Positions 16,560 to 50,099 of a stretch of 64,000 nucleotides of DNA are shown here, piece after piece (the first letter of the stretch is position 1; every line of letters starts with the position of its first letter). The notes under the pieces are model-generated. The model worked only from the letters and a program-made list of their open reading frames with translations. It searched no databases and was not told where the DNA came from. The position numbers were made by a program, and so were the translations under genes. The stretch is from an uncultured candidatus Porisulfidus sp. GTDB taxonomy: Bacteria; Pseudomonadota; Gammaproteobacteria; Poriferisulfidales; Poriferisulfidaceae. The stretch is from assembly GCA_965199755.1 (NCBI GenBank), contig CBDASZ010000002.1:224001-288000 (forward strand), read 5' to 3'.

Positions 16560-17399
16560 ATGCGCACCCAGTTTTTGACTGTTTTTTTGAGCCTCGCAAG
16601 CACCGTCGCGGCCGCTGGCGAGCACACTGAGATTTCGCGCTACGCCTATCTGTTGCCCGGTAGCAGCCACGCGCAGCGTCATCCGCTGCAAGTCACCGTG
16701 ACGCAAGTGCGCTTCCCGCAGGAAGTCGCCAACGTCGGTGAGGCCCTGCAGTATCTGCTGACCCGTTCCGGCTATCGGCTGGATGAGCAGCGCAGTCCGT
16801 GGGCGCGCGCCATTTTGATGCCGCAGCCATTACCGGAAGTGCAGCGCGATCTGGGGCCCATCCCGCTGGCCGAGGCGCTCGGCGTGCTGGCCGGCAGTGC
16901 CTGGCGACTGAAAGTCAATCCGCTGTACCGCACAGTGATCATTGAACCGACCGAAGCATGGCTCCAGCAACTGGAATCGGCACCGGCGCGGCTGGAAATC
17001 GAACGCTCCGTGCCGCGCGATACCGCACGTGCCGATCTCTATCTGGACTCTTCCCTCGCCGATGGCTTCAAGTCCGAGACACCACGCGATGAATTCGCGC
17101 CCGCCGCGGAAGACTATACCGTGGCGCTGGAGTTCTCCGCCTCCCTGCATGATCCCGCGGAAATCTTCGTCGACGATCTGAGCCTGCAGCAGGCGCTGGA
17201 TCTGCTGGTGCCGGAAGGTTGGCGTCTGCGCCCTGAGGTGCGCGCGCAAACGTTGCAGTCACGCATCTCGCTGATCTCATCCACCACCTGGTGGGACGCG
17301 CTGACGGAACTTGCGCACAAGCTCGGCATGCAAACGCAAAGTGAATTGCTGCTGCATGTCTTTGAAGAACAGAAACTGGTGGTGCTGGAGCAGATCTAA
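16560..17399 (+). CDS. PilL-like type IV pilus biogenesis protein (ICE/plasmid T4bP type)
   Basis: Signal peptide; segment RY...AQRHPLQ...VGEALQYLLTRSGYRL...PLPEVQRDLGPIPLAEALGVLAGSAWRL resembles the ICE PilL N-terminal domain; second periplasmic domain at C-terminus. Confidence 0.75.
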   Translation: MRTQFLTVFLSLASTVAAAGEHTEISRYAYLLPGSSHAQRHPLQVTVTQVRFPQEVANVGEALQYLLTRSGYRLDEQRSPWARAILMPQPLPEVQRDLGPIPLAEALGVLAGSAWRLKVNPLYRTVIIEPTEAWLQQLESAPARLEIERSVPRDTARADLYLDSSLADGFKSETPRDEFAPAAEDYTVALEFSASLHDPAEIFVDDLSLQQALDLLVPEGWRLRPEVRAQTLQSRISLISSTTWWDALTELAHKLGMQTQSELLLHVFEEQKLVVLEQI

Positions 17400-18908
17400 A
17401 TGAATACCCGCGCTCTTGCCGCCCTCCCGCTCGCCCTCCTCACGGCCTGCAGCACCCCGGACATCGCACCAGTCGAGGTGGCGCGCCCGGAACCTCTGGC
17501 GATCCCGGAGCCCACTGCCGCCGTGACCAATGCGCCGCGCCCGTTCGTGCGCGTGCGCCAGACGCCGGACCCGCGTCCCGGCCTCACCATCACCCTCAAT
17601 CTGCAGGAAGCCACGCTGGCGGAGTGTTTAAGTCGCGCCGACCCGCGTCTGAACGTGGTGCCCACCACCGCCGATGTGGACCTGACACGCCGCTACGACG
17701 TGCGCGTCAATGAACTCAGCATGTCTCAGTACCTGAAGTTTCTCGAAGGCATCACCGGCTACGCGCTGGAACTGGATTCCGAGGAGCACATCCTGCACGT
17801 GCTCGCCTATCTGGGTCGCTCCTGGGACGTCAGCACTTTCGCCGGACATGGACAGGCCCGAATGCAGGTCGGCGCATCCGTGTCCCTGAGTTCCGGCTCT
17901 GCTGGCGATGAGGAAGGAGGCGACGAAGGCGATAGCGCCGAGAACTCCGGCTCAGCCATCGTGACTTACGACCATCAGGACCTGCCCTGGGATGATCTGC
18001 TGCACAACGCCCGCGCGATTCTGGGGCTTGACAATGTCGCGCTCGGCCCCGACCACACCGGCCACAGTTGGCTGGTCGCCGATCGACGCCTCGGTCTGCT
18101 ACGCGCCTACGGCCCGGTCGCGCAGATCCAGCAACTTGACACCTGGCTGAACGAACAAATACGCCGCGGCGCGCGACAGGTGTTGCTGGCCGTCGCGATT
18201 CTGGATGTCACCCGCGAGAAAGGCGACAGCAGCGGACTGGATCTGGATCTGCTGTATCAACGCATGGATCGCTACGTGCAATTGCAGCGCACCACGCCCA
18301 ACAACCTGAGCTTCACTACGCCCGGCGGTGCCTGGCAAGTTAACGCGGCGCTGGAGTTCGGACGCTGGAGCCTGAATGCGATCGTGCATCAGTTATCGCA
18401 GCAAGGCACCGTCACGATTCGCAGCGATCCCATCTTCACTGTGATCAACGGCATGACCACCTTTCTCGCCGATGGAGAGGAAGTCAGTTTCATCGCCAAC
18501 ACTGATCTCAGTCTGGGCCAGAACAACAGCCAGCCCCTTTTGTCGACCGAGTTCGAGCACATCCGGGTCGGCTTTCGCATCGCCGTCACTCCGCGCATGC
18601 GCCAGGACGGCACCATTCTGGTCGAGGTGGTGCCGGTACTGTCCTCGATTCGCTCACAGACCAGTTTCGATACCGGCGTCTCCACCGTGGTGCGTCCGAA
18701 CATCGCGATTCAGGAAATGGCCACACTTGCGATCACCCGAAGCGGCAAGCCAATCCTGCTCGGCGGCCTGATCCAAAGCCGCATGCGCGAAGCCTCGCAT
18801 CGCCTGCCCTGCGACCACTTCCTGTGCGATGTGTTCGCTTCCGCTACGGTCGAACAAGGCAACCGAGAATTGATGATCGTTATCACGCCGATTGAGGTGG
18901 CCATCTGA
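17400..18908 (+). CDS. Lipoprotein secretin (PilN/BfpB/MshL-like)
   Basis: Lipobox LLTAC; Ser/Gly/acidic insert; secretin core RQVLLAVAILDV, VGFRIAVTP, SGKPILLGGLI, ELMIVITP. Confidence 0.9.
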   Translation: MNTRALAALPLALLTACSTPDIAPVEVARPEPLAIPEPTAAVTNAPRPFVRVRQTPDPRPGLTITLNLQEATLAECLSRADPRLNVVPTTADVDLTRRYDVRVNELSMSQYLKFLEGITGYALELDSEEHILHVLAYLGRSWDVSTFAGHGQARMQVGASVSLSSGSAGDEEGGDEGDSAENSGSAIVTYDHQDLPWDDLLHNARAILGLDNVALGPDHTGHSWLVADRRLGLLRAYGPVAQIQQLDTWLNEQIRRGARQVLLAVAILDVTREKGDSSGLDLDLLYQRMDRYVQLQRTTPNNLSFTTPGGAWQVNAALEFGRWSLNAIVHQLSQQGTVTIRSDPIFTVINGMTTFLADGEEVSFIANTDLSLGQNNSQPLLSTEFEHIRVGFRIAVTPRMRQDGTILVEVVPVLSSIRSQTSFDTGVSTVVRPNIAIQEMATLAITRSGKPILLGGLIQSRMREASHRLPCDHFLCDVFASATVEQGNRELMIVITPIEVAI

Positions 18909-19771
18909 TGATTCCGCTGCACACCCCGACCCGCATCGGCCCGATTGACGTCGTGCTGGTCGACGATCTGGTGCTGAGCCACATCGCGCCCAATCTGGAG
19001 AATCAGCTTATGTCCATCACCTCACCCGACAGCGAGTTGCCGCTTTATGTGGAGCGCAGTCAGGTCGAGACGCTGTCCGAACAACATCCGCACCTGCCTC
19101 TCTACGGCTTGTGGCAGGTCATGCTCGCCTCCCAATGTATCCCGTCAGATACCGGGCTGTACCAGATTCGCACCAATCATCCATCACACCCGAAACGCTA
19201 TTTGATGCGCGAGGAGAACGGGGCCTACAGCGGCTGGGTTACGGAAGACAGCCTGATCGACACCGCCATGGCACAGCAGGATGCGCCTGAACCGGTCACG
19301 CTGGAACTGGAGATGGCCGCCTTGCGGCTGCCGTCCCAGCCGATTCAGACCCTGCGCCAGCAACACGCCCAGCAACGCCGTGCCTGGCGTCAAAGCATGA
19401 TGCTGCTCGGCTTCATCGTGTTGACGGGAACTTTCGCCGGGGTCGCTGCCGACCGGGTGCTGCATCATCGCCACACCGCGCATCTGAATCAGGCCACGGC
19501 ACTGCAGGAACAGGCGGCGGCGCTGCAAGGCACGCTGCAGCAACTGAACCGACAAGGACGCATCGAGGTCTTCGAGCAAAGCCGCCAGCTGGAGCAACTG
19601 ATCCTGCTGGCGCGGCACACACAGTCGGTTGAAGTGCCGCAAACTTCCCTGCTCTCCGCAGAGCGTATGCACGCCATCATTCGTGCGCCGCGAGCCCCGG
19701 AAGCTCCTCCGGGAATTCCGATTCACAGCGCTATTCATCAGCCCGATGCCTCGCTTCATGTCCGCTGGTAA
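18908..19771 (+). CDS. Pilus alignment/accessory protein (PilO/GspL-like by position)
   Basis: Cytoplasmic domain, one TM helix, then coiled coil; TGATG-coupled to the secretin. Confidence 0.6.
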   Translation: MIPLHTPTRIGPIDVVLVDDLVLSHIAPNLENQLMSITSPDSELPLYVERSQVETLSEQHPHLPLYGLWQVMLASQCIPSDTGLYQIRTNHPSHPKRYLMREENGAYSGWVTEDSLIDTAMAQQDAPEPVTLELEMAALRLPSQPIQTLRQQHAQQRRAWRQSMMLLGFIVLTGTFAGVAADRVLHHRHTAHLNQATALQEQAAALQGTLQQLNRQGRIEVFEQSRQLEQLILLARHTQSVEVPQTSLLSAERMHAIIRAPRAPEAPPGIPIHSAIHQPDASLHVRW

Positions 19772-20255
19772 CGCATGGCCGCGGCGCATGCTGGTGGTAC
19801 TGATTGCTGTCATAAGTTCCGGTAGCATCAGCGCCGGGGTGCTGGTACGTGATGCCGCGCGAGAAAGTGTGAATCTGGACGGGCTTGCGGCGCACGTCTC
19901 ACGGTTGCAGCAACGGCATGAACGGCTGCAGCAAATGCCGCCGAGTCAACCCATCCACTGGCAGATCCACCGCCTGCGGGCGCTGGCCCAGACGCTCCCG
20001 GACATCACCGCGTTTCAGGTCGTGGCCGCGGACCCTGACACCTACTCGCCAGAACTGGCCGAGCATATCGGTCAATTCGGCGGAACCGTCTGGAAGATTG
20101 CCGCGAAAGGCTCCCTGCTGTCGCTGGCGTCACTGTGCCGCACATCACACCATGAAATTCCACTGATTGTGGACTCAGTGCACGCCAACAATGGCACCGC
20201 GCATGTACTCCTTTACGTGCTCGGTGCACCTGCCGATCCGGCGGAGAATATCTGA
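19758..20255 (+). CDS. Pilus accessory bitopic membrane protein
   Basis: N-terminal TM plus coiled coil plus small periplasmic domain; overlaps both neighbours. Confidence 0.6.
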   Translation: MSAGNAWPRRMLVVLIAVISSGSISAGVLVRDAARESVNLDGLAAHVSRLQQRHERLQQMPPSQPIHWQIHRLRALAQTLPDITAFQVVAADPDTYSPELAEHIGQFGGTVWKIAAKGSLLSLASLCRTSHHEIPLIVDSVHANNGTAHVLLYVLGAPADPAENI

Positions 20256-20722
20256 TGCGCACGGCCTTGACTCTACTTTTGCTGCTAGCCGGAAGCGCTC
20301 TGGCAAACGGCCTGCCCAAACAGCCGGACGCCGCGCGCATCCTGCACGAGGCGGAAGCCCATCTGCGCAAACTGCAGCGCCTGAACGAGGCCGATACCCT
20401 GCTTGATGTACAGTTGAAGATCGCCAAGAAACTGGCGGAATGCCAGCAAACCGGCTATTCGTGTGCCACACTCGAAGGGCCTCACACCGCGCCGGAGACG
20501 GCACCGAACACCAGCGCGGCCACTTCCCCCTACGCCCTGCCGCAACTACTCGCCACCTATCAGGGCCGCGCGCAAATTCGCACCAGTGACGGCCGCTTGC
20601 TGGAAATACAACCCGGAACGCAACTTGGCCCGTGGACCGTCCGGCAGATCGCCGTGGACTTCATCTCCCTGCGCAACACCGCCGGAGAACAGTTGCGCCT
20701 GCCGCTGGAGCGCCAGCCATGA
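20255..20722 (+). CDS. PilP-like pilus biogenesis protein
   Basis: Signal peptide, coiled coil, Pro/Thr linker and beta-rich C-domain (LEIQPGTQLGPWTVRQI). Confidence 0.65.
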   Translation: MRTALTLLLLLAGSALANGLPKQPDAARILHEAEAHLRKLQRLNEADTLLDVQLKIAKKLAECQQTGYSCATLEGPHTAPETAPNTSAATSPYALPQLLATYQGRAQIRTSDGRLLEIQPGTQLGPWTVRQIAVDFISLRNTAGEQLRLPLERQP

Positions 20723-22425
20723 GCTCGCTGCCGCAACGCACCCGCACACAGTTCGAGGCGGTCCGTCAAGCCTTGATCGTCGCCGGCGCGCTGCCGTCCA
20801 ATGCCTTGCAACTCAGCTGCCCGGATACCGCTGATGCCATCATTCCGCGCCTGCTGCGCACCGGGGCCGATGCCGAATCGATCAGTCTGGCGCTATCAAC
20901 CGTGTTCGGACTACCGCTGTATGTGGAAGGCGTGCATGGCGCTTTGGAATATGCCGAGCATGAGACGGTGGGCTGGGCCGACGGGCGCATCTTTGTGTCG
21001 GACCCGTTCGCCTGTGAGGTGCTGATTCGCAACCCGCAACTCGCGCTGCCCGAAGAATGGCTGCGCCATTATCAAGGTGATATTGGACTGCTGCCCATCC
21101 CGGCGCACACCCACACTCTGGAGGCGCACGAAGCATCATCCTCACATGAGGCCGAGCGCATCCTGAATGAATGGATCGAACTGGCCATCGAGCATCGCGC
21201 CAGCGACATTCATATCACGCCGCGCGACAACGATTCCGTAGAAATCAAGATTCGGCGCAATGGCATGCTGCAGACCGTGCGCGAAGAGCGCATGACGATG
21301 TCGGAGAAATGCAACTACCGGCTGATTTCCAATACCTTGCTAAGCCTGTCCGGCAACCAGCATGGCGTCTACAATACCCCGCGGGACGGCAATATGGAAT
21401 TGCCGCTGCGCGGCCGCCTGTTTTTCATTCGCGTCAATATGTCGCCGGTCACCATCGGGCGGCGCATCTGGGGATCCTTCACGCTGCGCATCGTCGGCGG
21501 CTACCAGCACACCGTGCAGACGCTGGAGCAACTGGCACTGCCGCCGACCTATGTCCGCAACCTACACCGCGTCGCCGAGCGCAACAGCGGACTGTTTCTG
21601 CTGACCGGCCCCACCGGTTCCGGCAAGACCACCACGTTTTACGCGGTGATCATGGAGATTCTGCGGCGCACCAAAAATCAGGTGTCGGTCAAAACGCTGG
21701 AAGATCCGATCGAAGTGCAGGTGCCGGGGATTGACCAGATCCAGATCAATTCTGACATCGGCATGAGTTACGCCGCCGGACTGCGCGCCTTGCTGCGGGC
21801 CGACCCAGACGTCATCCTGATCGGGGAGATTCGAGACGAGGAAACCGCCGCGCTGGCCGCCCGCGCCAGTCTGACCGGGCATCTGGTGCTGTCGACGCTG
21901 CACACCCAAAACAGCCTCGGTGCCATCGATCGCCTGCGCAATCTTGGCGTCAGCTCGCACCTGATCGCCGACACCCTCACCGCGGTCGGCGCGCAACGCC
22001 TGGCGCGTCAGGTGTGCCCGTCCTGTGTGCGCCATGGTCGCGACACGGCCAGCGAAGACGCCTGTCAGCGGCTGAGCCTGCCGTATCACCAGTCCTGGCC
22101 GCTGGCGAACCCGGACGGTTGCGAGCAGTGCGCTTACAGCGGGTACCGCGGCCGCGCCTGCCTCTCTGAAACCCTGAACATCACACCCACGCTGGCCGAT
22201 GGCATCAACCGCGGCGACAGTCTGCGCGACCTGTATGAGGCCGCAACTGATGAGGGCTTTGAGGATTTCTGGACCCAGGCCGAACAGCAAGTGCGTGACG
22301 GACACACCAGCTGGGCGGAATGTCTGCGTGTGCTGCCCGGTCGCTTTCGCGAAACAGTCACCCCCGCGACATCCAGTCGCACCCTTCCCTTCCCTTTTCA
22401 AATTATGGAGAACCAAGCCGTATGA
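20719..22425 (+). CDS. Type IV filament assembly ATPase (PilQ/GspE/PilB family)
   Basis: Motifs ASDIHI, Walker A GPTGSGKTT, TLEDPIE, DPDVILIGEIRD, TGHLVLSTLH, tetracysteine CPSC...CEQC. Confidence 0.95.
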   Translation: MSSLPQRTRTQFEAVRQALIVAGALPSNALQLSCPDTADAIIPRLLRTGADAESISLALSTVFGLPLYVEGVHGALEYAEHETVGWADGRIFVSDPFACEVLIRNPQLALPEEWLRHYQGDIGLLPIPAHTHTLEAHEASSSHEAERILNEWIELAIEHRASDIHITPRDNDSVEIKIRRNGMLQTVREERMTMSEKCNYRLISNTLLSLSGNQHGVYNTPRDGNMELPLRGRLFFIRVNMSPVTIGRRIWGSFTLRIVGGYQHTVQTLEQLALPPTYVRNLHRVAERNSGLFLLTGPTGSGKTTTFYAVIMEILRRTKNQVSVKTLEDPIEVQVPGIDQIQINSDIGMSYAAGLRALLRADPDVILIGEIRDEETAALAARASLTGHLVLSTLHTQNSLGAIDRLRNLGVSSHLIADTLTAVGAQRLARQVCPSCVRHGRDTASEDACQRLSLPYHQSWPLANPDGCEQCAYSGYRGRACLSETLNITPTLADGINRGDSLRDLYEAATDEGFEDFWTQAEQQVRDGHTSWAECLRVLPGRFRETVTPATSSRTLPFPFQIMENQAV

Positions 22426-22886
22426 CTTATCCCACTTCTCAGCGCCGGCGCTCGCAGACCGGTTTCACCCTGCCGGAAATTCTCGCCGTGATTGCGCTGC
22501 TCAGTGTCCTGATCTCGGTCATCACCACGAATTTTGGCAATGCCTCCCGGGATTTGACGCTCACCAGTAGCAAGGACACGCTGCTGAATGACATTCCCGC
22601 CGCCATGATGTCCTATCGCGCCATCAACGGCAGCCTCACTGGCCTGACCAAGTCCGACATCACCGACACCGGCGTGCCAGCATCCAGCCCTGATGGCGAT
22701 GCCTGGACAGTCGGCACTGTCAACACCCGCAGTGCCGTTATCAACTGGCTGTTGTCCAACGCGGACAATCCTGATGATTTCGCCAATGACCTGACGGCCA
22801 GCCTGACGACAAACGGTTCAACCATTTCCGCCTCCACCTACACCAGCAGCAGTAAAACGCTGGCGGTGACCTACGCGATCCCCTGA
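22422..22886 (+). CDS. Major pilin candidate (PilS-like)
   Basis: Class III signal QTG|FTLPEILAVIALLSVLI; Ser/Thr-rich globular head; GGAGA RBS. Confidence 0.88.
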   Translation: MTYPTSQRRRSQTGFTLPEILAVIALLSVLISVITTNFGNASRDLTLTSSKDTLLNDIPAAMMSYRAINGSLTGLTKSDITDTGVPASSPDGDAWTVGTVNTRSAVINWLLSNADNPDDFANDLTASLTTNGSTISASTYTSSSKTLAVTYAIP

Positions 22887-22888
22887 GC

Positions 22889-24034
22889 ATGACGCTGTAT
22901 TCCGTCCGCATTCTGTCGCCCTCCGGCAATACCGCCACACTGGCCATCGACGCGCACAGTGTGGAGGCGGTGCGCCAGCATCCCACGCTGGCGCGCCAAC
23001 AGATCGTATCGGTGCGGCGGCACTGGCAGGAATGGCTCGGACTGCGCCGCACCGACCCGAACGAACAGCGCCTGCTGTTGATGCGCATGGCCAGTCAGTT
23101 GATGCGCGGGCGGCTCAGTGCCACCGACCTTGAACAGATCATTGACCGGCTGCCAAGCCTGAGGCGCAACCGGCGGGCGCGCCCGAAGTACAGCCTAACC
23201 GGACTCGCGCCGCATGAAATCCTGTTGCACCTGAACTGTCACCCGTTCGCTATCGCGCTGTGTCGGGAAGGCGAGCAACTCGGTCAGGTGCCCGAACTGC
23301 TGCTGCAAGGCGCACAATTCCTGGAACAGCAGCGCCACATCAAAAAGCAACTGCACGGCCCACTGTTTAAGTCCTGTCTGTATCTCGGCACCACCCTAGG
23401 ATTGCTGATCGTGACCCCGCTGTTGTTCCAGACGCTGCTCGACAACCTCGCGACACGCGTTGTCATTCAGACCAATCTCGCCACCGAGATTCTGAGCGGA
23501 CTCAACATGGCGCTGACCGACTTCCTGCCATTGACGCTGGCCGCGCTGGTGGCGATGGTGGCGCTGGGCCGGACTGGATGGGTACAACTACGGCGCTGGC
23601 CGGTGGTGCAGGATTTCGACGGTCTGATCCGCGCGCGGCGCGCTTCGGTGTTGTTGTCAGTATTGATCCCGTCCTTTCGCAAGGGCGTGCATCTGGCGGA
23701 CCTAATGCGCTCTTTAAGTCCGCTGTTGGGCCGGCGCGCAAGCCACTATCTGTACACCCAGTTGAATACCGGACATCGCCTGTCGCAAAGTCTCACCGAG
23801 ACCTACTTCAGCGAAACTCTGGTAGTCGGTCTCAGCCAGTTTGAAGACGTCCCGGACACCCGGCTGCCGACCGTGTTCGACACCGTGAAATCCAATCTTG
23901 AGGAAGAAATCAGCTGGCGGCTGGAGCGCATCGTGCGCGTGATGCAATGGCTGTACATGGGCTTGCTGATGGGGCTGTTGCTGCTTTTGATTCAGGGCTT
24001 TTTAGTGCCCCTGTACTCCATTAGCGTGACATGA
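22889..24034 (+). CDS. Inner-membrane platform protein (PilR/GspF/PilC family)
   Basis: Three TM segments; GEQLGQVPELL motif; C-terminal FLVPLY. Confidence 0.88.
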   Translation: MTLYSVRILSPSGNTATLAIDAHSVEAVRQHPTLARQQIVSVRRHWQEWLGLRRTDPNEQRLLLMRMASQLMRGRLSATDLEQIIDRLPSLRRNRRARPKYSLTGLAPHEILLHLNCHPFAIALCREGEQLGQVPELLLQGAQFLEQQRHIKKQLHGPLFKSCLYLGTTLGLLIVTPLLFQTLLDNLATRVVIQTNLATEILSGLNMALTDFLPLTLAALVAMVALGRTGWVQLRRWPVVQDFDGLIRARRASVLLSVLIPSFRKGVHLADLMRSLSPLLGRRASHYLYTQLNTGHRLSQSLTETYFSETLVVGLSQFEDVPDTRLPTVFDTVKSNLEEEISWRLERIVRVMQWLYMGLLMGLLLLLIQGFLVPLYSISVT

Positions 24035-24270
24035 AGCACCCCTCGCAACGCGGCTTCACGCTGCCGGAGATGATCGGGGTCATCTCGCTGGTCGCGATTA
24101 TGCTAGGCCTGTTCGCCAGCGCCGCCACTTCGCGATGGGTCGCCGTGCAAGCGCGCATCGATCAGCGGGCAGTGGTCGAAAGTACCGCCACAGTGCAGCG
24201 CGGTGATCTGCGCATTCCCCTGTGGCGCGCAATGGAATTGCGCCGGCAACACGAGGCGGAAAACCCATGA
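24031..24270 (+). CDS. Short minor pilin
   Basis: QRG|FTLPEMIGVISLVAIML class III signal; 79 aa; ATGA overlaps at both ends. Confidence 0.8.
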   Translation: MKHPSQRGFTLPEMIGVISLVAIMLGLFASAATSRWVAVQARIDQRAVVESTATVQRGDLRIPLWRAMELRRQHEAENP

Positions 24271-25139
24271 TGCAACGGAGAATACCCGCCGCGCGCCAGC
24301 GCGGCTTCAGTCTGCTGGAACTGGCCATCAGCATCCTGCTGTTCTCCATGCTCATCGGCAGCGTGCAGTTGAGTTTCACCCGACGCATGTCGCAAGAACT
24401 GCAACTGGATCAGGCGGAACAAGCGGCCGGGCAGATGTATCGGCTGGCGAACGCGGCGCAGCACTATGAGATTCAGAATGGCGAATGGCCGGACGAACTG
24501 ATGCAGTGCGTGGGGGCCTGGACGGTGCTCGAAAGCGACGGGTTGCTGAACACCACGGGGATGACTTCGCCATATCAGGACGCTCAGGGACGGGTTCAGA
24601 AATACACAACAGCCTGTGTGCAACCGACCCATTTCCGCGTCTCGATCACCACCGAAAGTGTGGATCACGCCGCGCGGCTTGCGCAGAAAATTCCCACCGC
24701 CACCACCGTCAACCGCAGAGTGGTGGTGCGTTATCCTCGAGCGGCCGCGGTTGGCAACGACGGCGACTTTCTGCCGCTGGACGGCTCGGCACGCCCCACC
24801 GACACGCTGGACTTCGGCAATCAGTACGTGTTCGGCGTCAAGGACATTCTGGCGACCAGCGGGCAGACCCTGCTCAATTCGGTGCAGCACGTCACCACCG
24901 CGAGGCCCGGCGACAAGATCACCAAGCCGGCCTGTCCGGGCCAGATGCAGCCGCATATTTTCACCGCGCTCAATCGGGTGCAAACCTCCAGCGGGCGGCC
25001 GCTGCACGCCATTCAGTTGCCGGCGGAGGACAACGGCGACAGCTGGACTGTGGACGCGGTAGTCACCGGCTCAGGCGGTGATGAAACGGTTTCTTCTAGT
25101 GATGCAAGCATCACTGTTTTCGTTAAATGCTCTTACTAA
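24267..25139 (+). CDS. PilV-like tip/minor pilin adhesin
   Basis: QRG|FSLLELAISILL; long helix; FLPLDGS beta segment; C-terminal KPACPG...C domain as in PilV-type tips. Confidence 0.78.
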   Translation: MMQRRIPAARQRGFSLLELAISILLFSMLIGSVQLSFTRRMSQELQLDQAEQAAGQMYRLANAAQHYEIQNGEWPDELMQCVGAWTVLESDGLLNTTGMTSPYQDAQGRVQKYTTACVQPTHFRVSITTESVDHAARLAQKIPTATTVNRRVVVRYPRAAAVGNDGDFLPLDGSARPTDTLDFGNQYVFGVKDILATSGQTLLNSVQHVTTARPGDKITKPACPGQMQPHIFTALNRVQTSSGRPLHAIQLPAEDNGDSWTVDAVVTGSGGDETVSSSDASITVFVKCSY

Positions 25140-25156
25140 AAGGAGAATGATTCACT

Positions 25157-25558
25157 ATGAAAGAACTGACTATTGCTCTGGTGTTACTCGCCGGCTTCCT
25201 CGGCATCACGCAAACGGCTTTGGCCGCACAGCCGCTGACGTACGCGCAGTGCATCCGCATGGAACTCACCGACAACGCCTGTCATCGGCGCATCGCCTCG
25301 GCCGGCGGCACCTCCCGGTCCGCGCCACGAACCGCTCAGGACGTCATGGTTGTGGAGGAGCCTGACCCAGATTCAAACGAAAACACCGAGCCAGTGATCG
25401 TCATCAAGGACCCGGACGGGAAAACCGCCAAGGATCGGTGGTACGATCAATATGTTCTGTACGCCCGTGACTATGGCGCGAGAGTGGAGCCCAAAAGCGT
25501 CGCGCTTCGGTACTACCCGAACTATCCGCCGATGCGACCCGCTTACGGCTTTCGCTGA
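25157..25558 (+). CDS. Secreted hypothetical protein, last gene of pilus operon
   Basis: Strong AAAGGAGA RBS; Sec signal ending ALA; two Cys. Confidence 0.75.
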   Translation: MKELTIALVLLAGFLGITQTALAAQPLTYAQCIRMELTDNACHRRIASAGGTSRSAPRTAQDVMVVEEPDPDSNENTEPVIVIKDPDGKTAKDRWYDQYVLYARDYGARVEPKSVALRYYPNYPPMRPAYGFR

Positions 25559-41910: not shown

Positions 41911-42063
41911 TTAAGATTCTGTCGGTTTGAATTCAAATTTGAGGTCTGGGAATGCCTTCTTCAAAGACTCTGCCGCTTCTAACGTTCCTGTACCCCACTG
42001 GTTACTAAACACATATGTCTTTTCGCCAATCAGAAAAACCTCTCCGTCGTTACAAAAATATGG
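41911..42063 (-). pseudogene. Orphan C-terminal gene fragment
   Basis: Manual translation PYFCNDGEVFLIGEKTYVFSNQWG...FPDLKFEFKPTES*: protein-like, with no start codon; marks the left edge of the AT-richer island. Confidence 0.55.
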
Positions 42064-42125
42064 GACTTACCAGCCTAATTAGCCAAGAAGGGCTTGATAT
42101 CCAGCGCGGGAATGGCTAAATTTAA

Positions 42126-43068
42126 TCAAGAACGGACAGGGGAATACATTTCAGGGTCGGTAGGTCCATAAATTCCTACGACAGAAGTTTGCACTGCTGC
42201 AGCCACGTGCAACAAACCCGAATCATTGGCTGCCCTACATCAGGCTATGGCAATGATGTCAACCACTTCTTCAAGAGAAGTTTTGCCACATAAATTAGCG
42301 ACTTCGCAACCATATTTCTGCGCTATCTTTTCACCCAGCCCCCCCCCCCCATTAAGACGATTTGATAGCCGTCAGCAATCAACATTCCTGCTAATTTATT
42401 GAAAGACTCCAAGAGCCACTTCTTCGCACTCCACCTTGACGCACCCGGTGCCAAAACAATTAGTTCTCGACCCATATCCAACTTAAACTTTTGCATTGTC
42501 TGGTCCATTCGTTCCGGGTAAACTACGAGATGTGGATTCGGGACAGGATTCGAATGCGGCATATCCGGTGGCAGTAGTCGAACAATTTTCTCTTGAAAAC
42601 TTCGTGATCGACGCACCCTTAAATCATTCACCAGCCAAGGCCGTACTTGCTGAACCCTGTGCGGCGAGCAATGCCGGCGAGAACAAGCAACATGCCGGCA
42701 TTTGTTGAGCGTGGAGTCAAAATGGATGCAGGATAGTTTTCACTACGAATTTGCTTTATTGTTCTGAACCATAAGCGAGACGGGAATCTGCCCTTGGTAG
42801 TGTTGATCTCAAAGTGATTGCGAACTTTTGGCATTCGCTTAATGAACCCTCGAAAATGTGATGGTGCCACGACGTCGATAATCATCGACAGGGCATGTTC
42901 TTTCAGTAAGCGAAGCAACGTCTGGTTCATCACCAGATCACCAACGGACGTATCCAATACCACCAACAAGTGGGAGTACGCAGTATCTTCAGAGGTCGCA
43001 ATATCGGTGGGTGATTCACTCATGGCAGGATGTTCTAAATTGACGAGATGTTCCTGAAACTGTGTCAT
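42126..43068 (-). pseudogene. GT9 LPS heptosyltransferase (WaaF-like), disrupted
   Basis: Pieces VGDLVMNQTL / APGASRWSAKKW / NLCGKTSL..*..NDSGLLHVAAA...GIYGPT lie in three frames. Frameshifts near 42630 and at the G12 tract; in-frame TGA at 42240-42242. Confidence 0.88.
42339..42350 (-). repeat. Homopolymeric G12 tract within GT9 gene
   Basis: 12 consecutive C on the + strand, located at a frame switch. Confidence 0.9.
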
Positions 43069-44660
43069 TATTTGATGTTTTCTCTGAGCTCCCAGTACAC
43101 ATCTATGTGCTGCCGTGCAATCAGTGCAGGATCGTATTGTTTTGCCCGTTCAATTCCTGCCTGGGCAAACTTTTGGCGCAATTCTGAAGATTGATACAGG
43201 CGAGTTATTTGCTGTGCTAGCGCATCCGCGTCATTAGGAGAAACCAGCACCCCACACTCATCAGTAACGACTTCCGGGATCCCCCCGACTCGACTGGCCA
43301 CAATGGGGATACCTGAGTGCATCACGTCCAATAGTATAGAGCCTAAAGACTCGATCAGTGAGGGAAATACGAATAAATCAAAAGTATCCACCCACGCCCA
43401 AGGCTCTTCTATCCACCCGGCAAAATGAATATTGCTCAGTCCCTTCGCTTGCTGGCGCAACTCTTCTTCCAAACGACCAGCACCCAGTAACAGAAACTTC
43501 ACATCTGGAAAATCCGCTGCTAACAATTGTGCAGCCCGGATCAGCACCGAATGTCCCTTCTCTGGTCCATCCATTGCAGCCACATGTCCGATCAAAAATT
43601 TGCCTGAAAACTTCTCGCGGATTTTGGCAGTACTTTCCGGGTCTGCGTCTCTGGGATTCCAGGCATCGGGGATGCTATAGGTAGAAATATACGGAAACCT
43701 CTGACGCACACCTTGCTCAACCGCATCTGTGAGTGTAATCACAGTTTCTGCATTTCGATAGATGGCAGAACTATACAGATTGTTGTTGATGGGTTTTGTC
43801 AGCCTCCGTGTGATCAAATACTTGCTACGCCAAATGAGCGACGCGGCATACGCCACTTGTGTGGCATGCGCCTCATGCGCGTGCAGTAAAGAAGACCCAC
43901 GACACGCAAACAACGCGGCGAGCCGACTTCGCGCCAAGTGGAGTTCAATGGTCTCGGTATTTTTAAGGCGCGATGCCAGCGGCCCATGCTTCAATACCAC
44001 AACCCGTTGTTCGGCGACTCCCTCTTTTTCGAGGGCCTGAATCAGAATTTCGGTTTGACGCTCCCCTCCTCTCAGCTTGGAGTCTCGCGCAAGATTGAGG
44101 TGGCATACCGAGGCAGCCTGCAAGCGCGATTTGCGGAATATCTTAAGCCTGTATTCGGGAAGTTGCGTTGCTTTTCTGCGTAGCAACCAAAGGGGTCCGA
44201 CCAGTGTGCGATAGCCCCGTGACGCAACCCATGTGGTCCTCCCTATGCCCCAAAACCAACACCATATCAGTCGAGTACTCCACGATAGCGGATCAACCAG
44301 TTGTGTTTCGATTTTGATTTCTACGATTGCCTTGCCGTTTAACTGAAGTTCATCTCTCAAACGGCACGCCGCGATCACTTCCACAAAGTGCAGTGCATGA
44401 CTGTTGCGTCGTGAAATAAGGCAGTGAATCCCGTTAATTTCAGCGTGCCAATAGTAAATGCGCCCTTCTTGAGGAATAGCCGTGTACTCTGGTTTGAACC
44501 GCACTGGCCGATCCAGAGCAACATTCAGTGAACCCGGATACGGAAGTGCCCCAAGCGCATCAGAAATCGGACTCGGTTCTATGTTCCACCGCGACGCAGT
44601 GCCATAACCGCTGACAACGCGGCCCCTTAGCACTGTCTGGTCGGACGCGGATTCCGGCAT
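43068..44660 (-). CDS. Fusion: CTP-dependent riboflavin-kinase-like (DUF120) domain + GT4 glycosyltransferase
   Basis: N-terminal LRGRVVSGYG, PYPGSLNV, EVIAACRLRDELQL; C-terminal GGERQ, EKGH, ESLGSILLD, SRVGGIPE. Confidence 0.82.
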   Translation of the reverse strand: MPESASDQTVLRGRVVSGYGTASRWNIEPSPISDALGALPYPGSLNVALDRPVRFKPEYTAIPQEGRIYYWHAEINGIHCLISRRNSHALHFVEVIAACRLRDELQLNGKAIVEIKIETQLVDPLSWSTRLIWCWFWGIGRTTWVASRGYRTLVGPLWLLRRKATQLPEYRLKIFRKSRLQAASVCHLNLARDSKLRGGERQTEILIQALEKEGVAEQRVVVLKHGPLASRLKNTETIELHLARSRLAALFACRGSSLLHAHEAHATQVAYAASLIWRSKYLITRRLTKPINNNLYSSAIYRNAETVITLTDAVEQGVRQRFPYISTYSIPDAWNPRDADPESTAKIREKFSGKFLIGHVAAMDGPEKGHSVLIRAAQLLAADFPDVKFLLLGAGRLEEELRQQAKGLSNIHFAGWIEEPWAWVDTFDLFVFPSLIESLGSILLDVMHSGIPIVASRVGGIPEVVTDECGVLVSPNDADALAQQITRLYQSSELRQKFAQAGIERAKQYDPALIARQHIDVYWELRENIK

Positions 44661-44793
44661 TCGGATCTAAAAGATAAAAATTAGATCAGCAATTATGCTG
44701 GTTTTCATCACCACATATGCACATTTCTCATAAAAGTGCTCTGCTTTTCCCGCATAATATGAATTCTGAGTGCTGATGAAAATCCCGGTTTTC

Positions 44794-45276
44794 ATGGCCT
44801 CACTCCCATCCTCAAGCCTTCCAATATCTGCAGTAATTCTGTTTAAGAACTCACTCGACACCTTGCCGAAAACACTGGACAGCCTGCAAGGGCTGGATGA
44901 GGTATTGATCTTTGATAACGGCCCGACACCGGAATTAAATCAGGCGTGCGCACCTTACTCTAACCTGCGGATCGTTACTGGAGAATTTGTCGGATTCGGC
45001 CCGATACGGAATCAAGCTGCGAAACTGGCACGAATCTGTACGATCTGTGAAACAAGAGCTAGAAAAAATCAATCGCTACACCGAACTTGCCACAAAGGAC
45101 TCGCGCAGACCTTCTTCCCTTTGGGGTGCTAGGTGCGAGCGACTTGGCAATTTTTCAACGCCTACGTGCTGGAGTTGGGAATGCTGGATGGCTGGCGCGG
45201 ATTACTATGCGCAGTGAACACAGCAAATACCGGTTTTTACAAGCACATTAAACGCGTGGCCGCTCGCGACGGCTAA
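44794..45276 (+). pseudogene. GT2 glycosyltransferase (WaaE/KdtX-like), internally deleted and frameshifted
   Basis: ISAVILFKN...DEVLIFDNG...GFGPIRN joined to KINRYTELA and LGMLDGWRGL in other frames; the central DxD region is missing. Confidence 0.82.
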
Positions 45277-45599
45277 ACTCATGGCTAGGCTCGCTCACCT
45301 GAATCATCGCTCATTTCCACGAACTAAAACGTCGGGACTCCTTGATGCGCCACCTTGTCTGCACAACAGTACTGATCGCCGCGATGGGTTTAGAGCATAA
45401 ATGAGTTTAGTTTTTTAGAATACGCGCCACCAACAAGAAAACAACGAAGCACGTTCATACCCATCCTTTCCCTAGAAGACAAACAGGCTTTGTTCGCCCA
45501 GCGCAGGTACAGGAGCCCTTTCAGCCTTCCAGTACGCTCTACCCGGGCCAGTTGCCTAGCTATATGGCGGCTGCTACACTCGCATATTGAAGCATCTTC

Positions 45600-46293
45600 T
45601 CAACCTCTGCGTATATTGGATATAGGGTGTGGCTCCGGGGCTATGCTCCAGCATACTGCCTAGCATTGCCGCACAAAAAACTGGCCTGTCGAAGGAAATC
45701 TCCTTGGTTTGGATATTGATGAAGAAGCCTTTCAGGCAGAAGTCCCGTTCAAAAAAGCCGACCTAAACCTGCCACTAACCCAACAAGTGGAATCCTTCGA
45801 CATTATCATCGCCATGGAAGTACTGAAGCACTTGCGAACTCCATATCTGATGCTGGAAGATATTTACCAGACCCTGAATCCAGGTGGACATTTTCTGTTT
45901 TCAGTGCCGAATATTCACAACCTGCTTAGCCGGATCAAATTCTTGACCAAAGGCACAACCTACAAATACCACCTACCCAGTGCCGACTCATCAGATGCCC
46001 ATAGCACACACGGACATATCAGCCCGTTTTCAATCCAGTATTGGGATTATGGATTGCGCTATGCAGGGTTTTCGGATATTCACTATTCCACCGACCGATT
46101 CATCCGAGAAGCTTTAATTTGGGCTGCCCTCTTGTCGCCACTTCTATAGCTAGGAACCTGGTCGCTGCACCGTAGAGAGTAGCAGAGAAATCAGCGGATC
46201 TATGAACAAAACCACAGGGCAGCTCATGAAATCAATACGTTGCGGAATCTCGCTGGCAGTAACCTCATCGGAAAATGCGCCAAGCCCTTATAA
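45600..46293 (+). pseudogene. Class I SAM-dependent methyltransferase, disrupted
   Basis: Motifs ILDIGCGSG, FDIIIAMEV, LNPGG, FSVPN; in-frame TAG at 45661, 46147 and 46180. 5' boundary approximate. Confidence 0.82.
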
Positions 46294-46378
46294 CTGACTC
46301 TAATCACACGGCTACCTTTTCAGAAAGTTGTATGATCTCGCTCTCATTTCGCAATGCAAAGATTGAATCTGTAAGATT

Positions 46379-46947
46379 ATGAAAGCCCAGCAAATTGAAT
46401 TCCTAAAACTGCTCGAAGGCAGGGTTCAGGACATCATCCCGTACTGGCAACGCCGCTACTGTTGGGGGAAAGCCGACACCGAACGACTGATCGAAGATCT
46501 GATGGCAATCGCAGACGCAGATACAAATTCCAATCATTATGCGGGTAATCTTCTAACCTTCCCCAAACCAAAAACAGCCTGCACTAGTAAATCCAAAACT
46601 TTTCGTGTGGTCGATGGTCAGTAGCGACTGACAACCGTAAGCCTCTTACTCGCATGTATCGCCGAAAAACTAGAACACGAAGTAGGCAAAATTCCCTTAA
46701 ACTACATATCCGAAACCATAAGCAATCAGCTACTAACATCAGGAGGATGTGCCAGTTATCGCAGATCATACGATGTGAAATGGCAGACCAAAGTATTTCA
46801 GGGGATGTGGTGCAGGAAAGCAGGCAACGTAAAACCGTGCACGTTGAGCGCTCTTGGGAACGAGAAAACGACGATGAGTGGGAAGAGGCTTATGAGTGGA
46901 TTTATGAACAATACAAAAGACTAATCCTTTATATTAGAAAACGCTGA
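46379..46947 (+). pseudogene. GmrSD/DUF262-type restriction gene remnant
   Basis: Motifs IPYWQRRYCW, HYAG, and VVDGQ*RLTT with TAG in the DGQQR motif; followed by a short C-terminal-like fragment in another frame. Confidence 0.8.
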
Positions 46948-46980
46948 TTTTGAAGATGAGAAACATTGAGGTAGCTCCTA

Positions 46981-50047: not shown

Positions 50048-50099
50048 CTTCTCTCATTTTCACAAAACCTCCACTACCAACGAATACGAAAACCCCGCT

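Follow-up and report, generated by a model that had tools for sequence, protein, structure and literature searches.

A chromosomal type IV filament operon in a genus of sponge symbionts, probably a domesticated pilus derived from a conjugative element

Introduction

What kind of machine is encoded by a compact type IV filament operon standing among core genes of a sponge symbiont, and where could it have come from? The window analysed here is a stretch of 64,000 nt, in which a first-pass annotation had recognized the operon and read it as an orphan system of an undescribed subtype. We consider it probable that the operon encodes a domesticated, ICE-derived pilus, a working machine of an uncharacterised clade that has been chromosomally fixed in the genus.

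Results

Gene organization of the operon

Reading of the sequence and its ORFs, together with the family calls (profile score in bits versus the curated cut-off of each model), confirmed the annotated 11-gene operon at 16560-25558. The ORFs are co-oriented on the + strand, all 11 frames are open, and the core parts are all present and intact as judged by sequence and profile matches.

16560-17399, +: g1, secreted PilL2-domain protein, 279 aa
17400-18908, +: g2, lipoprotein secretin, 502 aa
18908-19771, +: g3, bitopic inner-membrane assembly protein, 287 aa
about 19746-20255 (start uncertain), +: g4, small bitopic protein, about 169 aa
20255-20722, +: g5, periplasmic PilP-like protein with signal peptide, 155 aa
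20719-22425, +: g6, assembly ATPase, 568 aa
22422-22886, +: g7, major pilin, 154 aa
22889-24034, +: g8, inner-membrane platform protein, 381 aa
24031-24270, +: g9, very short prepilin-type protein, 79 aa
24267-25139, +: g10, large minor pilin, 290 aa
25157-25558, +: g11, small secreted protein with signal peptide, 133 aa

The genes overlap by 1-4 nt or abut, apart from three junctions, namely a 26-nt overlap of g3 and g4 (with the chosen start), a 2-nt gap between g7 and g8 and a 17-nt gap between g10 and g11. Upstream lie petA (210.9 bits), cytochrome b and then a membrane protein with weak CPBP matches (23.8 bits, cut-off 435), and downstream lie ychF (453.8), pth and L25. The GC content is 0.61-0.62 over the operon, with 0.56-0.61 in adjacent bins, and no tRNA gene was found in the window.

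The PilL2 domain of g1 (TIGR03748, 94.8 bits versus 64.15) covers residues 25-127 of a protein that is 59-66% identical in the congeners, and this N-terminal domain is typical of MPF_G elements; the C-terminal half carries no assigned domain. Among the first genes compared, it is common only to the genus, an MPF_G element of the gammaproteobacterium G313 (93.3 bits) and pMAQU02 (120.4 bits); the first genes of the operons in the sister family (f3), Methylophaga, pQBR103 and R64 gave no match. The secretin g2 (PF00263, 67.4 bits versus 27.5) has a lipobox cysteine at the end of its signal peptide; its top NCBIfam model is MshL (107.7 bits, below the cut-off of 250.2). No family match to g3, g4 or g11 was found among the curated profile models. 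In its AF2 model (pLDDT 78), g3 begins with an alpha/beta domain, continues in a long helix (149-216) and ends in a small domain. Foldseek matched the model weakly to GspL (cytoplasmic domain, E 0.09-0.1) and to PilO2Bp (E 0.3), which suggests that g3, kept in 8/8 congeners and also in the sister family and G313, probably partners the ATPase in the manner of GspL/PilO2. The next gene, g4, occupies a GspM/PilO-like position, with a hydrophobic segment at the N-terminus of its product and 37-44% identity in congeners (8/8 loci), and g5 stays under the PilP cut-off (TIGR03021, 22.5 bits versus 34.65), with 41-47% identity in congeners and 26% in two loci of the sister family. The ATPase g6 (T2SSE, PF00437, 305.1 bits versus 24.9) has an N-terminal domain, about 145 aa long, that is specific to its clade, and scores 292 bits with the PilB model (cut-off 676). 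The pilin g7 (N_methyl, 26.0 bits versus 21.2) has a 14-residue leader, Phe as the first mature residue and no cysteine, and is 52-60% identical in congeners. The platform protein g8 (T2SSF, PF00482, 29.4 bits versus 25.2) is 53-59% identical in congeners and 22-28% in the sister-family loci, and g9 (N_methyl, 23.9 bits versus 21.2) is weakly conserved, its congener matches being confined to the N-terminus.

Filament genes in the whole genome

The operon is the sole type IV filament machine of the 1.39-Mb genome (98.9% complete). In the genome-wide searches, g2 was the only secretin and g6 the only T2SSE-family ATPase; therefore no retraction ATPase is present. The annotation had seen neither this enzyme nor a prepilin peptidase in the window, and rightly so: the single A24 peptidase of the genome lies outside it, in the context pilD-coaE-zapD from which pilB and pilC are gone, and is a relic of a lost pilBCD cluster. 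A cysteine-free pilin and a missing retraction ATPase are also compatible with a short pseudopilus. From the T2SS, the genome search recovered an 82-aa GspG stub and nothing else, with no match to the GspC, GspI/J/K and GspL/M families. Short contigs of one RNA library fall on g1, g2, g6, g10 and the flanking genes, possibly as DNA carry-over.

The minor pilin g10 and its predicted partner

In the AF2 model of g10 (N_methyl, 24.8 bits versus 21.2; pLDDT 73), a pilin domain is followed by a beta domain at the C-terminus. Foldseek matched it to TcpB (E 1.6e-4, prob 0.99; with the C-terminal half of TcpB, prob 1.0 and TM 0.40) and less strongly to CofB (E 0.012-0.048, prob 0.33-0.60), at 9-14% identity with both, which suggests that g10 is probably a tip subunit; a search of 1.84 billion cluster representatives with its profile retrieved 272 of them at E≤1e-10. 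The downstream g11 was found by tblastn in 7/8 congener loci, with two invariant cysteines and 21 invariant columns in 8 sequences, and has no family, no Atlas relative and no detectable relative outside the genus. It is predicted to be a binding partner of g10: three g10 copies plus g11 scored 0.77 (best of 3 controls 0.02), a mark reached by 58/80 solved complexes and 2/110 mismatched pairs in the calibration. Unlike the calibration, the g10-g11 prediction used shallow alignments and three copies, and likeness to known complexes could have raised its score, because the TcpB-TcpF and CofB-CofJ peptide complexes are solved. At least 46% of the contacts agree between runs, the partner pLDDT is at least 55, and the predicted interface joins g11 residues 25-68 (the conserved, mature N-terminal part) to the C-terminal domain of two g10 copies. 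The adhesion or secretion role proposed earlier fits such a TcpB/CofB-like minor pilin.

Such a pair might instead serve a T2SS-like exporter, whose short pseudopilus would push g11, and perhaps other periplasmic proteins, out by way of the secretin, in place of the lost T2SS. The ATPase scores nearer to GspE than to T4bP ATPases (PDB search: GspE/EpsE 219 bits, BfpD 114 bits; NCBIfam GspE model 326 bits), the cysteine-free pilin matches the GspG/GspH models through its N-terminus only, the operon ends with a secreted-protein gene whose product is predicted to bind g10, and the genome has no retraction ATPase and has lost its T2SS down to the GspG stub. However, the GspE score lies far under the cut-off of 630.25, the GspE clade of the ATPase tree (support 100/100) excludes g6, the GspC, GspI/J/K and GspL/M matches are absent, and g10 resembles the pilus-tip protein TcpB and, more weakly, CofB. 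T4b pili with TcpB/CofB-like tips export partners yet still form pili. We regard the exporter as an unlikely explanation.

An MPF_G secretion cluster in the same genome

The operon had been taken for an orphan without conjugation genes, but a type IV secretion cluster of MPF_G (ICE) type, comprising 13 genes, is present on a separate contig, C1 (TraC 832.8 bits versus a cut-off of 520.6), and the orphan reading was rejected on this ground. TraC is found in 14/15 congeners and the full 13-gene order in 4/5 loci examined, and the combination of the operon with a conserved MPF_G cluster occurs in the genus alone. The TraC protein is only 41% identical to that of G313. The first-pass annotation had named the remainder of an ICE, linked elsewhere in the genome, as a finding that would speak against its reading. 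In part this was found, as the T4SS, but not as a relaxase, coupling protein or integrase: no TIGR03760 relaxase, TraD or TraG-D_C domain was found in the genome, and XerC and XerD are its sole two tyrosine recombinases, with no integrase beyond them. A 519-533-aa membrane P-loop protein is kept in twelve congeners and in genome G010 (50-56 bits in the genome search; 86.7 bits with the TraD model when the G012 protein was scanned whole), and G010 additionally has a full TraD (686 bits); tblastn did not find this TraD-like protein in the window's genome.

Conservation and relatives on mobile elements

The ATPase occurs in 15/15 congeners (64-77% identity), and the gene order is kept in 8/8 congener loci examined, with both flanks in 7/8 (CPBP-like flank 8/8, ychF-pth-L25 7/8), which upholds the earlier description of a chromosomal, host-like and vertically conserved locus. 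The operon is absent from 12 genomes of family f2, and in the sister family 3/3 loci from two genera lie in a core context with mraZ-rsmH-ftsL-ftsI (dcw cluster) immediately downstream, a chromosomal site different from that in the genus. No TraC was found in the sister-family genomes with the operon; an MPF_G partner is therefore not required by the system, whose presence in the order could predate any ICE.

In the ATPase tree, the genus, the sister-family chromosomes, G313, Methylophaga pWTT2411 and pQBR103 make up one clade (11 rows; support 94/95, and 97/92 at an inner node), apart from R64 PilQ/BfpD, GspE and MshE-context ATPases, so the distinct ATPase clade foreseen by the annotation is supported. 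Within it, the genus, the sister family and G313 group together at 99/93, with no firm branching order among them. The deep position of the whole clade is a polytomy, because of which the tree is compatible with transfer in either direction between chromosomes and mobile elements. All clade members compared have the order ATPase-pilin-platform-minor pilin-large minor pilin.

The subtype, once thought undescribed, has been seen before: its gene order also occurs on pQBR103, on a Methylophaga plasmid and in an MPF_G element. A close relative is the backbone 'type IV pilus region' of the Pseudomonas megaplasmids pQBR103/pQBR57 and pBT2436-like (IncP-2), and Methylophaga pinxianii pWTT2411 carries the same cluster. 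Both pQBR103 and pWTT2411 have the same order (a small gene at the front, then the secretin, three further small genes, the ATPase, the pilin, the platform, and a small and a large prepilin) and an ATPase that aligns over its full length, including the N-terminal domain. However, these clusters are plasmid-borne beside coupling-protein or small-ATPase genes, the identities are low (ATPase 31-33%, secretin 25-32%), their first gene lacks the PilL2 domain of g1, and no g11 homologue was found in them. Of the records in a plasmid collection, 128 match the ATPase over 80% or more of its length. Papers on the pQBR and IncP-2 megaplasmids mention the cluster as a putative, unexplained 'type IV pilus region'.

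The G313 element resembles the operon in its order and in its PilL2 first gene (domain 44% identical; ATPase 35-37%, large minor pilin 33%), and its MPF_G genes belong to the same families as those on C1. In G313, a T4CP and an MPF_G cluster (TraC 848 bits) follow on the same strand, about 12 kb downstream of the operon. The pilus, a small second ATPase, the T4CP (TraG-D_C) and the T4SS thus stand side by side there as a single element, whereas the modules of the window's genome are divided between contigs, and both the T4CP and the small ATPase are absent. An ORF of tyrosine-recombinase size, judged by size alone, lies near the G313 element.

This distribution bears on the alternative of an ancient, vertically inherited chromosomal pilus of the order, unrelated in origin to MPF_G, whose mobile copies were captured from chromosomes. 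It would suit the single core site of the three sister-family loci, which lack TraC, the host-like composition, and the lack of a firm branching order inside the 99/93 clade. Nevertheless, the two families have the operon at different sites, the 12 f2 genomes have none, the PilL2 domain of g1 is common to the G313 MPF_G element and pMAQU02 and not to the three sister-family operons, and the genus alone joins the operon to a conserved MPF_G cluster. On balance, we hold this alternative to be improbable, slightly more so than the exporter.

Decay into a relic without present function might be suspected in a reduced genome of 1.39 Mb, where g9 is short and weakly conserved and the congeners' coupling-protein-like gene has no counterpart; it is nonetheless very doubtful, as all 11 frames are open, 10/11 genes are recognisable in 8/8 congeners with ychF-like divergence (65-71%), and the operon and peptidase were retained while T4aP and T2SS genes were lost. 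The least credible alternative is a live conjugation apparatus moving DNA between symbiont cells, for which the two intact, conserved modules, the membrane P-loop protein of the congeners and the TraD of G010 might speak, but neither a relaxase nor a coupling protein, a TraG-D_C domain or the TraD-like protein of the congeners was found in the window's genome, and XerC/XerD are the only integrase-type recombinases found.

Discussion

Comparison with known systems

The R64 pilL-pilV cluster (IncI1) shares the logic of the operon, i.e. first gene, lipoprotein secretin, accessories, PilP-like protein, ATPase and terminal large minor pilin, and g1 has the PilL2 domain, which is name-giving in the PFGI-1/PAPI-1 class. 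The PAPI-1 pil2 cluster, compared here by its general description, encodes a conjugative thin pilus. In R64, however, the platform gene precedes the pilin gene instead of following it, PilL has no TIGR03748 match, and the cluster also encodes a peptidase, a transglycosylase, a shufflon PilV and a recombinase of its own, none of which is in this operon. The thin-pilus signature noticed by the annotation does not make the operon an R64/PAPI-1-type thin pilus: R64 PilQ is 27% identical to g6 (124 bits), R64 PilN gives 48 bits, and g2 reaches 58.9 bits with the PilN model, below its cut-off of 287.65.

With the TCP of V. cholerae (TcpB-TcpF) and CFA/III of ETEC (CofB-CofJ), the operon shares the fold of g10, closer to TcpB than to CofB, and the predicted docking of the g11 N-terminus on the C-terminal domains of the g10 trimer, which matches the solved peptide complexes 7w64 and 5ypz. 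TCP is not known to have a retraction ATPase either. The differences are that g6 does not group with BfpD/R64 PilQ, that g11 has no detectable relative outside the genus, and that g7 has a short leader, a Phe start and no disulfide. A precedent for domestication is Dot/Icm of Legionella and Coxiella, an IncI-lineage conjugation machine that was chromosomally fixed and turned to host interaction; the lineage is MPF_I there and MPF_G here, and for the system studied here neither effectors nor a coupling protein is known. A host-directed role of this MPF_G T4SS would be speculative.

Origin and possible role

Returning to the domesticated, ICE-derived pilus, we infer a common origin of the operon and the MPF_G cluster, which lie on different contigs. 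A conjugative element might have been fixed in the chromosome of the ancestor of the genus and then have lost its integrase and relaxase, and its pilus module (the operon) and T4SS module (on C1) might have split apart, both being retained. The lone prepilin peptidase would process the three prepilins, and the ATPase, the platform and g3/g4/g5 would polymerise the g7 pilin through the lipoprotein secretin, with g10 capping the fibre as a TcpB/CofB-like tip that would hold or release g11. The analysis shows the gene content, its conservation and the likeness of folds; the formation of a pilus, the tip position of g10 and the biological role are all inferred. From the domesticated, divergent filament first proposed, vertical conservation and a clade of its own have stood, while the system is neither an orphan nor an unseen subtype. 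Its function is most likely attachment to host or sister cells, with g11 being displayed or exported as well. A role in DNA uptake is improbable, the competence reading being disfavoured because no ComEC and no DprA were found in the genome. Whereas the clade otherwise rides on MPF_G conjugative elements and large conjugative plasmids, in these sponge symbionts it would have become a fixed chromosomal organelle.

Gene content and setting of the pilus operon

Eleven co-oriented ORFs lie at positions 16560-25558 (+) of the window, most of them abutting or overlapping by 1–4 nt. The first-pass annotation had described this operon accurately, and its eleven ORFs and their coordinates were confirmed. 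In order of transcription, g1 to g11, with the flanks, the features are:

Upstream flank: petA, cytochrome b and a weakly CPBP-like membrane protein
16560-25558 (+): the operon, made up of
g1: PilL2-domain protein (TIGR03748, 94.8 bits against a cut-off of 64.15)
g2: secretin with a lipobox
g3 and g4: no family assigned by curated models
g5: PilP match, under its cut-off
g6: T2SSE-family ATPase
g7: prepilin-type protein (pilin)
g8: T2SSF platform protein
g9: prepilin-type protein (mini-pilin)
g10: prepilin-type protein (large minor pilin)
g11: secreted protein, no family assigned by curated models
Downstream flank: ychF-pth-L25

The lipobox cysteine is absent from the sequence of g1, and the family models found neither a peptidase nor a transglycosylase within the operon. 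The GC content is 0.61–0.62 within the operon against 0.56–0.61 beside it, and no tRNA gene was found in the window. Elsewhere in the window, the stretch at 42000-50100 has a GC content of 0.45–0.50 against about 0.60 in the remainder; it holds a glycosyltransferase gene (43068-44660, -) and a McrBC restriction pair (AAA_5 at 46981-48783 and McrBC at 48767-50047), and is probably an acquired island.

A distinct ATPase clade with an uncharacterised pilus

In the PDB search the g6 ATPase matched GspE (219 bits), PilB (206 bits) and BfpD (114 bits), so that by score it is closer to GspE and PilB than to the T4b ATPases, although it falls far under both curated cut-offs (GspE TIGR02533: 326.4 bits against 630.25). 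With the same GspE and PilB models, ATPases adjacent to MshL scored 515–568 bits, as against 263–326 bits for the clade of the window. Among 300 sampled genomes of the class (G334 being counted in this tally only), full-length relatives including the N-terminal domain were found only in one congener, one genome of the sister family and G313, a gammaproteobacterium with an MPF_G conjugative element, the remaining matches covering only residues about 145–540. In the plasmid collection, 128 records span at least 80% of the ATPase, headed by the Methylophaga plasmid pWTT2411, pQBR103 and IncP-2-like Pseudomonas megaplasmids.

A maximum-likelihood tree was built from 38 ATPases, cut down from 48 rows by dropping 13 near-redundant GspE-like sequences and 2 congeners and adding 4 sequences of MshE context and 1 of GspE context. 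It contains an 11-row clade (support 94/95; inner nodes 97/92 and 99/93) made up of the genus, three sister-family genomes, G313, the Methylophaga plasmid and pQBR103, and thus the distinct clade that the first-pass annotation had named as a mark in favour of its reading. The order ATPase-pilin-platform is common to every locus of this clade that was read. GspE sequences form a clade of their own (100/100), outside which g6 lies, as it should not if the operon were a T2SS. The ATPases beside true MshL genes form two further clades (100/100 and 93/100), separate from that of the window. BfpD and R64 PilQ pair at 95/93, and HofB stands alone. The g6 ATPase is not grouped with the T4bP ATPases BfpD and PilQ, although the branching order among the groups, i.e. 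the deep nodes, is a polytomy.

The secretin g2 reached 107.7 bits with the MshL model TIGR02519 (cut-off 250.2), and at E<=1e-60 no MshL match was found in the genome of the window, while 54 of 151 genomes of the class were above the cut-off. As in the R64/PAPI-1 thin pilus, the first gene, g1, is of the PilL family, with the PilL2 domain of PFGI-1-class ICEs, and g2 carries a lipobox. However, R64 PilL itself has no TIGR03748 match, and in pMAQU02 the same domain heads an MPF_G cluster that has no pilus. Moreover, the PilN secretin model TIGR02520 gave only 58.9 bits with g2 (cut-off 287.65), and R64 PilN gave 48 bits by tblastn. R64 PilQ is 27% identical to g6 (124 bits) and lies outside its clade; the R64 order is ATPase-platform-pilin (Q-R-S) rather than ATPase-pilin-platform; and R64 carries its own peptidase, transglycosylase and shufflon, which the operon lacks. 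The operon is therefore not a conjugative thin pilus of the R64/PAPI-1 type, as secretin, ATPase and gene order all speak against it. Assignments to MSH, T2SS and R64-type systems were rejected on the curated cut-offs and the ATPase tree.

To judge from its model, the large minor pilin g10 has the fold of the tip subunits TcpB and CofB, a feature in common with TCP and CFA-III. The operon differs from these two in the major pilin: g7 has a 14-residue leader, a mature part of 140 residues that starts with Phe, and no cysteine, instead of the long leader and the large D-region with a disulfide of T4b-type pilins.

The pilus is not a categorically new machine. Its clade, coherent but uncharacterised, has members on IncP-2/pQBR megaplasmids, on an MPF_G element and in chromosomes. 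In the accessible text of the papers on the pQBR and IncP-2 megaplasmids, the cluster figures as a type IV pilus region of the conserved backbone, labelled putative and left unexplained, and that of Denise et al. (2019) counts 884 systems left 'generic'. A literature search confined to listings and abstracts found no description of the operon in sponge or sulfur-oxidising symbionts.

The only filament system retained in a reduced genome

The genome of the window comprises 1,389,004 bases in four contigs and is 98.9% complete. T2SSE-family ATPases and secretins are represented in it by exactly one gene each, both within the operon. A single prepilin peptidase is located on the same contig 170 kb away and is followed by coaE and zapD (C2:53460-55665; L088:5460-7665). 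These two genes are the usual tail of a pilBCD cluster. The expected place of pilB and pilC upstream of the peptidase is taken by unrelated genes on the opposite strand, and the locus would seem to be the remnant of a T4aP pilBCD cluster. A six-frame motif scan of the genome found prepilin N-termini only in g7, g9, g10 and one stub, an 82-aa truncated GspG pseudopilin at C1 about 102351-102599 (-) (L101:851-1099; TIGR01710, 70.2 bits, model positions 1–78 of 134), which is the sole trace of a T2SS found there; E. coli queries for GspF, GspD, GspG and GspL gave no match. Taken together, the single ATPase, secretin and peptidase, the missing pilB and pilC and the GspG stub indicate that the T4aP and the T2SS were lost, while the operon and the peptidase that it needs were kept. 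The pilus is the only filament system retained in this 1.39-Mb symbiont genome. A competence pilus was rejected, since ComEC (PF03772) and DprA (PF02481) are both absent from the genome, which argues against DNA uptake.

Inheritance and expression

The ATPase is present in all 15 congeneric genomes (64–77% identity) and absent in 12 of 12 genomes of the more reduced family of the same order. Synteny was checked over 20 kb around the gene in eight congeners. In all eight loci g1 to g10 occur in the same order (g9 only weakly recognizable) with the CPBP-like gene upstream, and in seven of the eight ychF-pth-L25 follows downstream; a g11 homologue is likewise found in seven. The pilus genes are 41–68% identical across congeners and ychF is 65–71%, so the divergence is alike. 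The kept order and flanks, together with this ychF-like divergence, point to vertical descent under constraint, and the vertical conservation named as a check in the first pass is upheld by the order in 8/8 loci and the ATPase in 15/15 congeners.

In one metatranscriptomic library, short contigs of 99–100% identity fall on g1, g2, g6 and g10, and also on petC, petA, ychF and a downstream gene; as the RNA runs are contigs, transcription is not demonstrable from them, DNA carry-over is possible, and the parts of the operon uncovered in run X1 carry no information. Runs X5 and X6 gave only chance matches of 18–23 nt.

A relaxase-less MPF_G cluster elsewhere in the genome

A whole-genome search detected an MPF_G VirB4 homologue (TraC, TIGR03744; 832.8 bits against a cut-off of 520.6) on contig C1, within 13 co-oriented genes outside the window:

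C1:530362-542236 (L022/L023): lipoprotein, DUF2976-like, TIGR03746, TIGR03749-like, TrbI-like TIGR03752, TraU (TIGR03756), TraC, TIGR03755, TraG_N and four small ORFs

Besides TraC, TIGR03756 (275 against 188 bits) and TIGR03746 (139.3 against 137.25) exceed their cut-offs; TIGR03755 (250 bits) and TIGR03752 (169 bits) fall under theirs, and TraG_N reached 80.7 bits. TraC occurs in 14 of 15 congeners, the exception being G003 (97% complete, 20 contigs), where it was not found, and also in 2 of 12 sister-family genomes. All 13 genes are in order in four of five congener loci, and the fifth shows the last seven.

Pilus and C1 cluster together supply the mating-pair genes of an MPF_G ICE of the PFGI-1/ICEclc/PAPI-1 class. 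The difference lies in mobility, for which relaxase, coupling protein and integrase would be expected. The relaxase TIGR03760, the class searched for, had no match in the genome; TraD reached at most 13.9 bits and TraG-D_C (PF12696) had no match; and the tyrosine recombinases are limited to XerD (382 bits against 329.6) and XerC (333.4 against 335.15). In R64/PAPI-1 the pilus is linked to T4SS and relaxase genes, whereas here the T4SS is on a separate contig and no TIGR03760 relaxase was found. Hence the lack of an integrase that the first pass noted for the window extends to the whole genome, XerC and XerD apart; the lack of a T4SS does not, and the operon is no orphan.

A conserved TraD-like membrane P-loop protein of 519–533 aa (L094:2329-3888, -; L095:2754-4355, +; sub-threshold TraD similarity, 86.7 bits) is encoded among housekeeping genes in 12 congeners. 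G010 also has it, alongside a full TraD. In the genome of the window, the P-loop protein was not found by tblastn. When compared with the coupling proteins beside the pilus in pQBR103, the Methylophaga plasmid, G313, R64 and the ICE loci, it gave a 64-residue Walker-A match to G313 only, which is uninformative.

Origin of the operon

The G313 copy of the pilus operon is encoded on the same strand as TraC (848 bits), which follows about 12 kb downstream; the interval contains a small second ATPase, a coupling protein with a TraG-D_C domain, and MPF_G genes. MPF_G elements therefore do carry this pilus clade. Furthermore, the PilL2 domain of g1 recurs at the head of the operon in G313 (93.3 bits) and of the cluster in pMAQU02 (120.4 bits); the sister-family operons (three loci), the Methylophaga plasmid and pQBR103 have first genes that lack it, and so does R64 PilL. 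This adjacency and this distribution both back a link between pilus and T4SS. A simple descent from an ICE is opposed by two other observations. In three sister-family loci from two genera (L039, L040 and L041, of G036, G017 and G032), the operon is located directly upstream of the core genes mraZ-rsmH-ftsL-ftsI in genomes without TraC, and the TraC of the window's genome is only 41% identical to that of G313. Weighing the two linking results against the two opposing ones, we rate an ICE origin of the operon of the genus as likely.

Two side observations concern these loci. The sister-family operons have unrelated small signal-peptide ORFs in the place of g11. The operons of the Methylophaga plasmid and G313 are followed by a small T2SSE ATPase gene (L034:18977-19939; L076:5185-6456), which is absent from the chromosomal operons of the genus and whose products branch in the tree with the outgroup rows R64 TraJ and BfpF.

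The first-pass interpretation thus stands in part. The pilus is fixed in the chromosome, is inherited vertically and belongs to an uncharacterised clade, other members of which ride on MPF_G elements and megaplasmids; its orphan status has to be given up, as the relaxase-less secretion module of such an element is located elsewhere in the genome.

A putative tip pilin and its predicted partner

The model of g10 (pLDDT 73) has a pilin domain followed by a beta domain, with residues 162–201 disordered. Foldseek matched it to TcpB (7w64_A; E 1.6e-4, prob 0.99), to the C-terminal half of TcpB (6mic; prob 1.0, TM 0.40 over 123 columns) and more weakly to CofB (E 0.012–0.048, prob 0.33–0.60; for 5ypz/4qs4, E 0.012–0.02, prob 0.47–0.60); T4b pilus subunits are also among the best structural matches. 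In two of the matched entries the minor pilin is in complex with the N-terminal peptide of its secreted partner, TcpF or CofJ. The gene g11, 17 nt downstream of g10, encodes a secreted protein of 133 residues in which two cysteines are invariant and a motif close to the mature N-terminus is conserved. A complex predicted from three copies of g10 (residues 30–290) and mature g11 scored 0.77, whereas the best of three controls reached 0.02. In the calibration, 58 of 80 solved complexes attained this mark, as did 2 of 110 mismatched pairs. The present job differs from the calibration in its three copies and its own shallow alignments, and similar complexes have already been solved, a likeness that could have raised the score. 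The runs agreed in at least 46% of contacts, with a partner pLDDT of at least 55, and the model places residues 25–68 of g11 between the C-terminal domains of two g10 copies. The modelling supports a putative binding of g11 by g10.

The g10 profile found 272 cluster representatives at E<=1e-10 among 1.84 billion, and many of them have only the pilin half in common, their C-terminal domains being different. Tip adhesins often vary in this domain. For g11, the best hit in the ESM Atlas scored 0.82, which is below the meaningful level.

In the model of g3, an alpha/beta domain at the N-terminus is followed by a long helix and a small domain in the periplasm. Its only matches are weak ones to the cytoplasmic domains of GspL and PilO2, and because of these and its position, g3 may be the membrane partner of the g6 ATPase. 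In a wide structural search with this model (VIA-align), coiled coils similar to the long helix took up the list of matches, which was thus uninformative on the domains.

Implications for the symbiont and the plasmids

It is conceivable, though we hold it to be rather improbable, that this genome-reduced sponge-symbiont genus domesticated a whole MPF_G transfer apparatus as a host-interaction organelle. The pilus would then display the small, genus-specific protein g11 on a TcpB/CofB-like tip, or export it from there, and the relaxase-less MPF_G system would serve as a protein translocator. Dot/Icm arose from IncI-type conjugation systems; if true, the domestication considered here would be independent of that origin and parallel to it. 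The putative TcpB/CofB-like tip pilin and its predicted secreted partner provide a first mechanistic handle on the pilus clade. With the system described here, two questions become directly testable, namely what the "type IV pilus region", so far unexplained, does for Pseudomonas megaplasmids of clinical importance, and by what means sponge symbionts whose genomes are shrinking attach to their host or communicate with it. The system is of interest for symbiosis as well as for the biology of the IncP-2/pQBR plasmids.
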